Part shown: piece by piece, positions 7,248 through 8,338 of the stretch
Position numbering within the stretch: position 1 is the first letter of the stretch
How the letters are laid out: each line of letters starts with the position of its first letter
The notes under the pieces: generated by a model
Told to the model about the DNA's origin: nothing
Seen by the model: the letters and a program-made list of their open reading frames with translations, nothing else
Databases searched by the model: none
DNA from: a virus
Lineage: Duplodnaviria > Heunggongvirae > Uroviricota > Caudoviricetes
IMG/VR virus record: IMGVR_UViG_2693429599_000008
DNA length: 9,032 nt
Reading direction: 5' to 3' (one strand)
Program-made: the position numbers and the translations under genes

Positions 7248-7673
7248 CTAGTAACGTCTAAAATACCTAACATTTCCTTGATAAAATGCCAGTACACGCT
7301 GCATAGCTTCGCTCTTCCGGCACTCGCGACAGATTATATTCAGGCGCCTGTCGTAGCGGCGTATTTCGCCGTCTGGTAACGACCAGATAAGGTCCGGATC
7401 AACCACTGCAGGTTTCTTCACCTTTGCCCTTGAGAGTTTTTTGCGAGCATTTTGCCAGTCCTTACGCGCCTGTTCAGACGGGAATAACCCGTAACCAGAG
7501 TTGTATACATCGCCACTGGCAACCAGCTCTCTGGCGAGAACACTCATCAGATATCTTGTCGCACCTGTCCTGGCTTCCAGTTGCCGCAACGTCTCGCGAC
7601 CGCTCAGACGTACAAGTTCAACAACCTGCCCTTTAATTTTTTCCCGCTCTTCTTGTGTAAATACTTTTGCCAT
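7248..7673 (-). CDS. Hypothetical protein (141 aa from ATG 7671-7673) with predicted N-terminal winged-helix-like region
   Basis: ORF 7248-7688 begins at TTG directly after the upstream stop; the first ATG (MAKVFTQ..) is at 7671-7673, 15 nt after that stop. 'GRETLRQLEARTGATRYLMSVLARELVASG' looks like a DNA-binding helix pair. No family recognised. Confidence 0.55.
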   Translation of the reverse strand: MAKVFTQEEREKIKGQVVELVRLSGRETLRQLEARTGATRYLMSVLARELVASGDVYNSGYGLFPSEQARKDWQNARKKLSRAKVKKPAVVDPDLIWSLPDGEIRRYDRRLNIICRECRKSEAMQRVLAFYQGNVRYFRRY

Positions 7674-7688
7674 AAGCGCCTCCGGCAA

Positions 7689-8243
7689 TCACTTTTCCGA
7701 TACAACACGGCGGGAAGAATCAGTAATCTGTCGAACAATATCCCGGTGCTTGTTCAGCTCCCGCAGCGCGGCGCAGACTCGCTCCCACTTCTGAACATCA
7801 CTTTTCGCCCTGCGCAGCGCCAGGTTTGCCCTGCGAAGGGACGGAAAAATCAGCTCATCTGCTTGCGTTTCGGTAAACGATGGCAACGGCTGCACAATGT
7901 CCGCCACAGTTTCTGTTTTAATTTCTTCCTGTGTTGCGGCTTCCCGGACTGGTAACGCAGCACCTGCTGGCTGAGGAAAGGCCTTACCATCACTTTCCGT
8001 TACCAGCGCGGCTTTCGGCTCTGCTGGTAAATTATCGCCCGGCATGCAGTAACGAAATTTACCGTTCTGATTAACGCGTGCCAGCCGCCCCGTTGCGGTT
8101 ACCACCGCCAGCGTGGAAGCAACCTTGCGAGTACTGACACCGAACTTACCCGCCAGTTCCTCACACGTTTTAGCCCCATCCTGACCGATAAACTCAATCA
8201 TCATGTCTGCGGTAACTTTTTGTTCGACCTCCCCGGTCAGCAT
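7689..8243 (-). CDS. Hypothetical protein (184 aa from ATG 8241-8243) with N-terminal winged-helix-like domain, Pro/Ala-rich linker and helical basic C-terminus
   Basis: ORF 7689-8288 begins at GTG with an anti-SD-like upstream sequence; the ATG at 8241-8243 has AGGA just upstream. 'TCEELAGKFGVSTRKVASTLAVVTATGRLARV' is HTH-like. No S24 peptidase motif, so not a CI-type repressor. Confidence 0.55.
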   Translation of the reverse strand: MLTGEVEQKVTADMMIEFIGQDGAKTCEELAGKFGVSTRKVASTLAVVTATGRLARVNQNGKFRYCMPGDNLPAEPKAALVTESDGKAFPQPAGAALPVREAATQEEIKTETVADIVQPLPSFTETQADELIFPSLRRANLALRRAKSDVQKWERVCAALRELNKHRDIVRQITDSSRRVVSEK

Positions 8244-8338
8244 ATCCTGTGCTTCAGATTTTACTGGCCGCTCTTCGGTTAACGTCACCTGGAGGCACCA
8301 GGCACCGCATCACAAAATTCATTGTTGAGGACGCGATA

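Follow-up and report, generated by a model that had tools for sequence, protein, structure and literature searches.

Ren of phage lambda is a 96-aa protein whose gene directly follows P. The ren gene is non-essential in lambda, and ren mutants are reportedly sensitive to Rex exclusion, a phenotype echoed in the GenBank and PHROG name 'Ren-like exclusion protein'; Ren is not known to act on transcription. Further, two-hybrid assays detected interactions of the Rex proteins with O as well as with Ren, and ren was characterised there as 'likely involved in DNA replication' (bioRxiv 10.1101/2021.04.19.439022).

YdaW (b1361), from the Rac prophage of E. coli K-12, is encoded after the loader gene ydaV. 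The K-12 protein is C-terminally truncated and consists of the N-terminal 186 aa of its family, i.e., two winged helix-turn-helix domains (wHTH-1 and wHTH-2) and the start of a linker. YdaW is counted among the E. coli transcription factors of uncharacterised function and is predicted to be MarR-like (PMC9308461), and early biofilm formation was lowered by ydaW deletion (PMC3105296). In addition, ydaW was listed as one of the prophage-encoded 'blockers' of RcaT, the toxin of retron-Sen2 (bioRxiv 10.1101/2020.06.22.160242; PMC11951105); that block was observed in an overexpression screen with the truncated protein. Full-length members of the family are labelled 'ydaW' or 'putative YdaW family protein' in phage records. 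A further name, LygF, is given to proteins of Rac-SA53, mEp460 and other phage records and was carried over from the Sdf region of Salmonella Enteritidis; our literature search found no functional study of LygF.

We analyzed two adjacent genes, both on the minus strand, within a 9,032-nt stretch of DNA (the whole stretch is referred to as the window). The two genes of 184 and 141 aa reported in the first-pass annotation were recovered: an upstream open reading frame (ORF A) runs from an ATG at position 8243 to 7689 and encodes 184 aa, and a downstream one (ORF B) runs from 7673 to 7248 and encodes 141 aa. The frame of ORF A, which ends with a TGA stop codon at 7689-7691, stays open further upstream, up to a GTG at 8288, and ORF A may hence be counted as either 184 or 199 codons within 7689..8288. 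The proteins had been assigned to no known family, which proved wrong, as each exceeded the gathering threshold of a curated Pfam family by a wide margin. ORF A matched DUF1627 (PF07789), which the first-pass annotation had named among families to check and which was a good guess for the first gene, with an E-value of 5.9e-99 and 328.7 bits against a cut-off of 28.1, which places it in the same family as K-12 YdaW. ORF B (7248..7673) matched DUF977 (PF06163), the LygF family, over model positions 1-133 of 134 (E 7.7e-28, 97.7 bits against a cut-off of 22.1), and is 70-95% identical to LygF proteins of Escherichia and Shigella phages. In line with this, a protein identical to ORF B in the E. 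coli CE10 prophage is named 'DUF977 family protein' by PGAP. A search of the NCBIfam profiles returned no matches for either ORF.

ORF B is intact and shares an end-to-end PHROG profile match with lambda Ren. It matched phrog_142, 'Ren-like exclusion protein', with an E-value of 4.6e-46 (profile positions 1-113 of 116), and lambda Ren matched the same profile with an E-value of 1.6e-41 (positions 11-110 of 116). This was in contrast with the Pfam result, in which ORF B passed the DUF977 threshold while lambda Ren matched no family at all. When family alignments of DUF977 and Ren were compared with hhalign, they were found homologous with 96.8% probability (E 2.1e-10). Both proteins combine an N-terminal wHTH domain with the C-terminal motif N..ECRxSxxMxRVLAxY, and the homology is strong in this motif and in the recognition helix. 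In ORF B, the signature NxxCxECRxSxxMxRVLAFY covers residues 112-131 (7281..7340, minus strand; NIICRECRKSEAMQRVLAFY), and N112, E117, C118, R119, S121, M124 and R126 were invariant in an alignment of 13 DUF977 members and lambda Ren. By blastp, 12 of the 20 signature residues were identical to lambda Ren (E 5e-7). Since ORF B has this signature in common with Ren and belongs to the genomic slot occupied by ren, it is a long-form Ren homologue, and DUF977 as a whole can be given the new label of a long-form lambda Ren family. The family is narrow, with 102 matches, many of them fragments, in a search of all representatives; at single-sequence sensitivity, this search reached Ren no further than the C-terminal motif.

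ORF B also differs from Ren in several respects. Among its additions are an N-terminal helix, a basic helix (residues 67-85; 7419-7475, minus strand) that follows the winged-helix domain (residues 7-64; 7482..7655, minus strand), and an insert of approximately 30 low-confidence residues before the motif. It also carries a CxxC pair (C115, C118), where Ren has F..C. As Ren lacks this pair and some 45 of the residues, the activity of ORF B could differ from that of Ren. The protein is strongly basic (pI 10.1, net charge +13), and the AF2 model reached a pLDDT of approximately 90 over residues 10-80. Foldseek returned only generic wHTH regulators for ORF B (GntR, MarR, MntR, ArsR and Zalpha), and in the fold search against BFVD and PDB all E-values exceeded 0.005 and none of the matches reached the C-terminal Ren motif. 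Profile searches of PDB were equally unspecific. Zalpha domains, which are recognized by a conserved Asn and Tyr of helix 3 and by a Pro-Pro-x-Trp wing, were the top PDB sequence matches, although marginal ones (E 0.0017 for ORF B and 0.03 for wHTH-1 of the ORF A family), and by eye the canonical N..Y and PPxW spacing was not reproduced in the query proteins.

The first-pass annotation had described ORF A as a gene of 184 aa. Full-length homologues of ORF A are 253-256 aa long and combine wHTH-1, wHTH-2, the linker and a C-terminal helix behind a native start codon, whereas ORF A lacks part of this architecture. Its CE10 counterpart is a gene of 771 bp ('DUF1627 domain-containing protein' in PGAP), and ORF A corresponds to approximately residues 58-256 of the 256-aa full-length protein, i.e., to the 3' three-quarters of the gene. 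Compared to CE10 and to the full-length homologue P0002, the first 59 codons, which comprise wHTH-1 and the native start, are absent, and the match of ORF A to phrog_630 was likewise confined to profile positions 61-252 of 253. Neither of the two possible starts is convincing: the ATG at 8243 is the internal Met73 of the full-length protein and lies in a poor ribosome-binding context, with AGGA 1 nt upstream, and the GTG at 8288 falls inside foreign DNA beyond a deletion junction. Judged by these sequence comparisons, ORF A is a 5'-truncated gene of the DUF1627/YdaW family and not a complete one. It is complementary to the K-12 fragment, in that the window has lost wHTH-1 and kept the C-terminal helix, and neither of the two is the intact protein of 253-256 aa. 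The Pfam-defined domain is wholly retained, with DUF1627 model positions 1-155 of 155 aligned to residues 34-188 of the 199-aa ORF. Further, a shorter PHROG family exists, phrog_11856, with a profile of 160 positions to which the full-length protein aligns from its residue 95 onwards. Given the kept domain and the existence of such shorter families, the truncated product might be active if made.

The remaining parts of ORF A were placed on an AF2 model of the full-length DUF1627 protein. wHTH-2 (full-length residues 84-138; 8046..8210, minus strand) was modelled at a pLDDT of approximately 75 as three helices (84-93, 99-106 and 110-123) and two strands (127-131 and 134-138), and the region showed weak profile matches to HTH_PafC, FeoC, DDRGK and MarR. 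Together with the Pfam and PHROG HTH matches and the pLDDT of approximately 90 for residues 7-64 of ORF B, this bears out the earlier description of an HTH near both N-termini. The Pro/Ala-rich linker and basic helical tail ascribed to the first gene were also recovered. The linker (residues 139-196; 7872..8045, minus strand) is predicted to be disordered (pLDDT below 50 at residues 143-197), consists of Pro and Ala to 31% and has a net charge of -5. The tail (residues 197-256; 7692..7871, minus strand) was modelled as a single long helix (197-255, pLDDT 65-84) with a net charge of +5; it matches phrog_29124 and phrog_1888 and is probably an oligomerisation or interaction element.

The window keeps one of the two winged helices of DUF1627; the other, wHTH-1 (residues 1-52), is acidic, with a net charge of -2. 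In the full-length model, wHTH-1, a flexible linker, wHTH-2, the long disordered Pro/Ala linker and the one long basic helix follow one another, and the overall shape, as modelled, is that of a tandem-winged-helix adaptor. The top PDB matches of the full-length protein were such adaptors (ScpB, the C-terminal domain of SelB, ESCRT-II and UFL1/DDRGK1; E 4e-4 to 2e-3), a likeness at the level of fold, i.e., of two successive winged helices, without a sequence relationship. The two winged helices of the model are joined by a disordered 30-residue linker, and their relative orientation is not fixed (pTM 0.26, rmsd 11-16 A).

The truncation of ORF A ends at a deletion junction, which was located by blastn and base-level comparison. 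Positions 5812-8281 of the window are 99.96% identical to the E. coli CE10 prophage, after which the alignment jumps by approximately 4.7 kb to DNA upstream of dicB. The 5-bp microhomology GGTTA (plus strand, 8277..8281) is the sole sequence common to both sides; left of it lies internal sequence of the DUF1627 gene, and right of it the leader upstream of dicB. The missing segment encodes, in CE10, a DnaC-like loader, an O-like initiator, YdaT, a cro-like gene, a repressor, DUF1391 and others, and the promoter was lost from the window along with this immunity and replication region. Across 5,426 complete E. coli genomes, every match ended at 8277/8281 and the intact junction was absent; an exact-match scan of species-representative genomes for a 31-nt junction sequence gave no match either, which is uninformative with one genome per species. 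By contrast, the exact 199-aa junction ORF was found on 10 contigs of NCBI draft assemblies, and the five that were examined had the same junction, which is therefore no assembly artefact. One contig, from GCA_001283785.1, is 100% identical to the whole window, and GCA_017117565.1 likewise carries the exact locus. The junction is thus natural and recurrent. The draft assemblies that carry it are near-identical to one another and may be clonal.

As stated in the first-pass annotation, the two genes are separated by exactly 15 nt (7674-7688, minus strand; ttgccGGAGGcgctt), and this gap recurs in gene calls at further loci. Among 44 IMG/VR pairs for which the spacing was measured, 41 were identical and three were off by 1 nt. 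The term 'translationally coupled' was not borne out, as the genes do not overlap and ORF B has its own strong Shine-Dalgarno sequence (GGAGG, 7679-7683, minus strand), 6 nt before its ATG. A scan of the minus strand found no sigma-70-like promoter with at least 9 of 12 consensus matches, and a relaxed scan found only 8/12 matches. Rfam detected sok as the only RNA element in the window, with no DicF and no element of any kind within 7248-8288. Since the pair is without a recognisable promoter and ORF A without a proper start, both genes are most likely unexpressed relics, and we regard the pair in the window, on the basis of these consensus scans, as probably a silent relic of a recent deletion; read-through or weak promoters may still serve it. 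Taken together, we hold the family identity and the relic status of the pair with high confidence.

The original place of the genes was apparent from intact relatives, in which the operon order is cro-like gene, YdaT, replication initiator, helicase loader, DUF1627, DUF977, QueH, hok and further genes up to Q. In CE10, Rac-SA53, HannyBb and IMG/VR loci, B or A and B together lie directly after the replication genes, as ren does in the pR operon of lambda, whereas in the window the replication genes have been deleted. The regulatory position considered in the first-pass annotation is not borne out by this, as the genes belong to the ren slot and not to an immunity or regulatory region. The two genes are separable: among 36 sequenced phage records, 12 carried both genes, 12 DUF1627 only and 12 DUF977 only, and 28 of 72 IMG/VR loci with DUF977 lacked DUF1627. 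The figure of 115 of 115 loci with DUF1627 followed by DUF977 is biased in this regard, as the 80 closest loci were kept, and it is the curated phage collection that reveals the separability. In many genomes, an intact DUF977 lies behind a DUF1627 gene that has been broken by a frameshift, an IS element or a deletion, although this set was retrieved by the short ORF itself and is uninformative on how frequent disruption is. N-terminally truncated DUF1627 forms elsewhere arose independently through IS insertions and frameshifts.

With moderate confidence in the explanation as a whole, we interpret the pair as a remnant of the early operon of a gutted Rac/Qin-type lambdoid prophage, in which B is Ren-like and A is an accessory gene. 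The pair would be the surviving distal end of an early-rightward (pR-type) operon after deletions, one of which, an illegitimate event at the GGTTA microhomology, removed codons 1-59 and the start codon of A together with the promoter and every operon gene upstream of A. In a functional phage, A and B would be made early, alongside the replication proteins, as non-essential accessory factors. B may act like Ren and guard the lytic growth of the phage against abortive infection or Rex-type exclusion, and would then probably contact exclusion proteins and/or the replication complex. This anti-exclusion role is a tentative proposal drawn from the homology, and we consider it possible, somewhat short of probable. 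A would often accompany B without being required, in a related role as an adaptor or against defence systems, and cooperation of A with B is a more doubtful suggestion still.

The wHTH folds and the strongly basic nature of B fit a plain DNA-binding regulator equally well, and both proteins could be sequence-specific transcription regulators of delayed-early (nin-region), late or host genes. Weak profile matches to MarR, GntR, HTH_11 and HTH_20 point in this direction, as do the listing of K-12 YdaW as a predicted MarR-like factor and the biofilm phenotype of the ydaW deletion cited above. However, no regulator family was matched at its gathering threshold, and the proteins lack the dimerisation or ligand domain typical of MarR and GntR. 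The acidic charge of wHTH-1 and the nearest tandem winged-helix folds, which contact protein or RNA, also argue against regulators of this type, as does the lack of any known regulatory activity of lambda Ren, and we consider this explanation unlikely. The first-pass annotation had already seen no resemblance of either protein to CI or Q. This was confirmed, since A and B are without Peptidase S24, HTH_3/Cro or antiterminator Q Pfam domains, and these functions are encoded by separate genes in intact relatives. YdaS/YdaT-like families, which had been named for checking, were rejected as well: neither PF15943 nor PF06254 was matched by A or B in Pfam, and YdaT is a distinct upstream gene that is deleted here.

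A and B might instead be accessory replication proteins that act at the origin and adjust the activity of the phage initiator, the helicase loader or host DnaB. In all intact loci examined, the loader gene directly precedes them, and the reported links of Ren to DNA replication and of Rex to O and Ren would agree with such a role. However, near-identical DUF1627-DUF977 pairs follow non-homologous loaders, either lambda-P-like (48 loci) or DnaC/IstB-like ATPases (46 + 16 loci), and DUF977 is also found after an O-like initiator without any loader. The variety of these loaders makes a module-specific replication partner unlikely. Further, many phages that are otherwise complete lack one gene or the other, and ren is dispensable in lambda; we judge this role to be distinctly improbable. 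The earlier suggestion that the genes encode replication-initiation proteins fares no better, as there were no Phage_lambda_P, IstB/DnaC, DnaT or O-like matches for A or B, and the initiator and loader are separate upstream genes in intact relatives.

Even less probable, in our assessment, is that truncated A and intact B are still expressed and retained by the host, e.g., because they block a defence or toxin system that resides there. In favour of this, the two reading frames are open, the DUF1627 domain is kept in full, the shorter family phrog_11856 exists, the locus recurs in at least five examined assemblies, and truncated K-12 YdaW is biologically active on overexpression (bioRxiv 10.1101/2020.06.22.160242). 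Yet the native promoter and start codon were deleted, with no good promoter or ribosome-binding site in their place, and the recurrence is among near-identical, possibly clonal assemblies. Further, there is a single mismatch in 2,470 nt to the intact prophage, which implies that the open frames reflect a recent deletion rather than selection.

Finally, a toxin-antitoxin-like module (an HTH antitoxin followed by a toxin, or the two in the opposite order), which the first-pass annotation had also considered, is extremely unlikely: only the layout favours it, in which two small genes point the same way with 15 nt between them and the first encodes an HTH, while Pfam, NCBIfam and PADLOC returned no known toxin, antitoxin or defence family for A or B beyond generic wHTH similarity (in PADLOC, a weak one to Csa3/CARF proteins), and the occurrence of each gene without the other, as in two thirds of the 36 phage records, argues against the obligatory co-occurrence of a type II pair, as do lambda, which carries Ren alone, K-12, which keeps only a YdaW fragment, and the many genomes in which DUF977 is intact behind a disrupted upstream gene.

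Returning to the early-operon remnant, the first-pass annotation had held that its reading of the pair would fall if both genes were assigned to well-known lambdoid proteins with established roles. This applies to B, as a Ren homologue, but not to A, whose YdaW family is without an established role. A bolder extension would see DUF1627 and DUF977 as an expanded Ren-type counter-defence module, in which wHTH adaptors neutralise abortive-infection systems, RexAB or retron-type toxins among them, during early lytic growth and the truncated 184/199-aa form is partly active in the lysogen; we offer it as a speculation with a low chance of being correct.

In genome annotation, ORF A should be entered as a 5'-truncated remnant that borders a deletion scar and not as a complete regulator gene. 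The pair is ordinary phage material, already represented in Pfam, PHROGs and PGAP, and the window adds nothing new on its function. The locus illustrates prophage decay in textbook fashion, as three large deletions leave dicB, the Ren-like gene, QueH, hok/sok, lysis genes and the NleB effector. With regard to the families, DUF1627/YdaW is a frequent neighbour of DUF977 in the same post-replication slot and, given the block of a retron toxin by YdaW and the puzzle of the mechanism of Ren, which has lasted for more than 40 years, the pair is a reasonable candidate for studies of phage counter-defence.

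The two ORFs had been described in a first-pass annotation as a translationally coupled pair of winged-helix proteins of unknown family at 7248-8288. The ORF table and direct translation bore out the lengths, spacing and coordinates of both. ORF A (8243..7689, minus strand) encodes 184 aa from its ATG, within an open frame that extends upstream to a GTG at 8288 (199 aa), and ORF B (7673..7248, minus strand) encodes 141 aa. They are co-oriented, and the spacer between them measures exactly 15 nt (ttgccGGAGGcgctt) and includes a strong Shine-Dalgarno sequence at a distance of 6 nt from the ORF B ATG. 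Adjacency was confirmed, and coupling itself is only possible, since the two frames show no overlap and B is preceded by a ribosome-binding site of its own.

The families of both proteins are known, with scores far above the curated Pfam thresholds. Gene A matched DUF1627 (PF07789; E 5.9e-99, 328.7 bits vs. a cut-off of 28.1) and gene B matched DUF977 (PF06163; E 7.7e-28, 97.7 bits vs. 22.1), and a search of NCBIfam returned no model for either. In PHROGs, they corresponded to phrog_630 and to phrog_142 'Ren-like exclusion protein' (E 4.6e-46), respectively. The DNA at 5812-8281 is also carried by Escherichia coli O7:K1 CE10 (99.96% identity) and many other genomes; PGAP labels the CE10 copies 'DUF1627 domain-containing protein' and 'DUF977 family protein', and phage records use 'ydaW / putative YdaW family protein' for A and 'LygF' or 'Ren-like exclusion protein' for B. 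Neither family has an established function. DUF977 is narrow, with 102 matches, many of them fragments, among 1.84 billion 50%-identity representatives.

Gene A, previously taken as complete, turned out to be a 5'-truncated remnant of the YdaW family. The 253-position phrog_630 aligned to it solely from position 61 onward, its homologues have 253-256 aa, and the CE10 counterpart measures 771 bp. In blastn, the CE10 prophage aligned collinearly with 5812-8281, and 8277-9032 matched CE10 DNA approximately 4.7 kb beyond that point, immediately upstream of dicB. In a base-level comparison, the parental sequences had only GGTTA in common, at 8277-8281, the hallmark of illegitimate deletion mediated by microhomology. 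Relative to CE10, this deletion removed codons 1-59 of gene A, the replication genes (a DnaC-like loader and an O-like initiator), YdaT, a cro-like gene, the repressor and small PL-side genes, along with which both early promoters were lost. Given the position of the junction, the GTG at 8288 is dicB-leader DNA; the ATG at 8243 encodes what is Met73 in the full-length protein, and the sole purine-rich stretch before it is AGGA, 1 nt upstream.

The junction was absent from all 5,426 complete E. coli genomes searched and from the species-representative genomes scanned. Ten contigs from draft assemblies at NCBI carry the exact 199-aa junction ORF, one of them 100% identical to the window across all 9,032 nt, and therefore the junction is real; gene order was identical in the five contigs examined.

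Other disrupted DUF1627 genes were retrieved through the short ORF A, a set that says nothing on the frequency of disruption. Within it, the linker between the first and second winged helices (wHTH-1 and wHTH-2) is a recurrent breakpoint (locus L006, 7700-8003; the DUF1627-related protein P0004; the window, 8277-8288). In L006 and P0004, ...V-T-E-E-R-P-V-K-S marks the point at which the end of a lambda-P-like gene has been fused, 1 nt away from the window breakpoint. Two further loci (L008, L009) carry IS3-family insertions in wHTH-1, and three (L005, L007, L010) are altered in that domain by frameshifts or small deletions. YdaW of the E. coli K-12 Rac prophage is the mirror image of gene A: it belongs to the same family, keeps the N-terminal 186 residues and is truncated at its C-terminus.

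Loss of the operon promoter and of the beginning of gene A, together with the promoter and RBS scans, makes it most likely that the pair is unexpressed in the window. A consensus scan of the minus strand found no sigma-70-like site of at least 9/12, a relaxed scan gave 8/12 matches at best, and the RBS is poor at both start codons of gene A (GTG 8288, ATG 8243). Weak or read-through expression is conceivable. The window DNA showed 1 difference in 2,470 positions from the intact prophage, which indicates a recent deletion, so that the intact frames are no sign of selection. If made, the truncated product of gene A could in principle be active, because it retains the entire Pfam DUF1627 domain and PHROGs include a shorter family, phrog_11856. 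The latter (160 positions) looks like a short form without wHTH-1. Opposite to it is phrog_1888 (118 positions, function unannotated), whose first half corresponds to wHTH-1 (K-12 YdaW residues 1-61) and whose second half corresponds to the C-terminal helix (residues 175-245 of P0002, a full-length DUF1627 protein), which suggests that natural 'mini' versions without wHTH-2 and linkers exist.

The AlphaFold2 models agreed with the winged-helix fold proposed for both proteins. Gene A was modelled through P0002, which is 99% identical to the window copy (mean pLDDT 65, pTM 0.26). The model comprises wHTH-1 (residues 1-52, pLDDT ~90), a disordered linker (56-80), wHTH-2 (84-138, pLDDT ~75), a disordered Pro/Ala-rich linker (143-197) and a single long helix (197-255, pLDDT 65-84); wHTH-1 is acidic, in contrast to the basic wHTH-2 and C-terminal helix. 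The HTH, Pro/Ala linker and helical tail noted earlier are thus wHTH-2, linker and helix, which the window copy keeps. The top PDB matches to full-length A were tandem-winged-helix proteins (SelB C-terminal domain, ScpB, ESCRT-II and UFL1/DDRGK1; E 4e-4 to 2e-3), with high rmsd because the domain arrangement is undefined. The gene B model (mean pLDDT 75.7) has a confident wHTH (residues 7-64) and a basic helix (67-85), followed by a low-confidence stretch and short helices across the conserved C-terminal motif. The protein is very basic (pI 10.1, net charge +13), and fold and PDB sequence searches returned generic winged-helix regulators only, all weak. DUF977 was previously classed as a winged helix by HHpred/COMPASS and is sometimes fused to Fic domains (PMC2686095). 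The best PDB sequence-profile matches of gene B residues 8-59 and P0002 residues 2-57 were Zalpha (Z-DNA/Z-RNA-binding) domains of PKZ, ADAR1 and poxvirus E3; these are marginal (E 0.0017 and 0.03, respectively), and conservation of the canonical Zalpha contact residues is not obvious.

Four results support gene B as a long form of lambda Ren. Firstly, the 96-aa lambda Ren matched the same profile, phrog_142, end to end (E 1.6e-41). Secondly, blastp aligned NIICRECRKSEAMQRVLAFY of gene B to NLVFKECRQSAAMKRVLAVY of lambda Ren (E 5e-7). Thirdly, when gene B and lambda Ren were aligned with 12 diverse DUF977 representatives, N112, E117, C118, R119, S121, M124 and R126 proved invariant. Finally, direct profile-profile comparison of DUF977 with Ren gave 96.8% probability (E 2.1e-10) over a match from the recognition helix to the C-terminus. 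DUF977 differs from lambda Ren in approximately 45 extra residues and in position 115, an invariant Cys that completes a CxxC pair in DUF977 and a Phe in lambda Ren. In gene B, this pair (C115-R-E-C118, 7320-7331) lies inside the Ren motif and contains its only two cysteines, so that any metal site would need a dimer.

Intact relatives place the pair after the replication genes rather than at the regulatory site first assumed: their genes run cro-like, YdaT, initiator, loader, DUF1627, DUF977, QueH, hok and onward to Q. Lambda ren occupies the same slot, directly after P. Among 160 IMG/VR loci, which sample the closest relatives only, DUF977 came next after all 115 assessable full-length DUF1627 genes, with essentially constant spacing in the 44 pairs measured; DUF1627 was absent from 28 of 72 DUF977 loci. 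In the curated phage collection, 12 records had both genes, 12 DUF1627 only and 12 DUF977 only, an even split which shows that these frequent neighbours in one mosaic slot are not obligate partners. In PPompW, the replication genes are followed by DUF1627 and then an unrelated ORF; in HannyBb, an O-like gene is followed by DUF977. The upstream neighbour in IMG/VR loci was either a lambda-P-like or a DnaC/IstB-like loader, mutually non-homologous, and the pair is bound to no single replication module.

The surrounding prophage is decayed. Intact dicB (8339-8527, plus strand; Pfam DicB E 4e-38, NCBIfam match above cut-off) has lost its promoter region, because the deletion ends ~60 nt upstream; Rfam detected no DicF sRNA in the window. 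Next come DUF1482 (8524-8712) and the first part of a RecE/YdfE-like exonuclease gene (8808-9032). QueH, an epoxyqueuosine reductase (6408-7094, minus strand; Pfam E 1e-65), lies directly after the DUF977 gene, a position kept in many prophages; such tRNA-modification cargo is odd for a lambdoid early operon. The hok/sok type I toxin-antitoxin locus (6015-6340) consists of a minus-strand Mok/Hok ORF (6015-6227) and sok antisense RNA (6165-6340; RF01794, 120.5 bits). A second deletion scar, at ~5762-5812, lacks ~6.1 kb of the CE10 prophage, including Q, RusA, DUF968, a DNA methyltransferase, three tRNAs and the N-terminal half of a NanS-p-like SASA esterase. The remaining 335-aa ORF (4840-5847, minus strand) is the C-terminal half of the 617-aa esterase, covers phrog_143 positions 299-631 of 634 and retains DUF6645 as its sole domain. 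The lysis cassette (holin, 4186-4392; lysozyme, 2965-3498; Rz, 2387-2686) leads straight into C-terminal fragments of GpJ (1912-2550) and a tail fibre (about 1158-1559), beyond which lies a complete NleB/SseK-family type III effector gene (1-981, minus strand), indicating that all head and tail morphogenesis genes are gone and effector cargo was kept.

Our literature search found no experimental work on DUF977 or full-length DUF1627. Lambda ren mutants are reportedly sensitive to Rex exclusion, a finding attributed to Toothman and Herskowitz in 1980. Two-hybrid data have linked Rex proteins to O and Ren (bioRxiv 10.1101/2021.04.19.439022), overexpressed prophage genes including ydaW block the retron-Sen2 toxin RcaT (bioRxiv 10.1101/2020.06.22.160242; PMC11951105), and ydaW deletion lowers early biofilm formation (PMC3105296). 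We therefore ranked first a role of the pair as a non-essential early accessory of Ren type, which may serve anti-exclusion or anti-defence. Plain transcription regulators came second; YdaW is on a list of predicted MarR-like transcription factors (PMC9308461). Replication accessories came third: ren has been called 'likely involved in DNA replication' (bioRxiv 10.1101/2021.04.19.439022), but the pair follows non-homologous loaders, which disfavours this role. The toxin-antitoxin-like module suggested by the first-pass annotation is essentially excluded, as Pfam, NCBIfam and PADLOC gave no toxin-antitoxin or defence-family matches, the genes are separable in the phage collection, and the upstream gene is often disrupted next to an intact downstream gene in the set retrieved through the short ORF.

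Of that annotation's overall reading, fold and adjacency stood, and family status, gene completeness, position and the toxin-antitoxin idea did not. Databases already cover this phage material, which here belongs to a decayed prophage. Two outputs are of use: gene A is to be annotated as what is left of a YdaW-family gene that lost its 5' end at the mapped deletion junction, and DUF977 is tied to Ren by comparing their profiles directly. Because of that link, the pair is a reasonable if unproven choice for work on counter-defence in phages.
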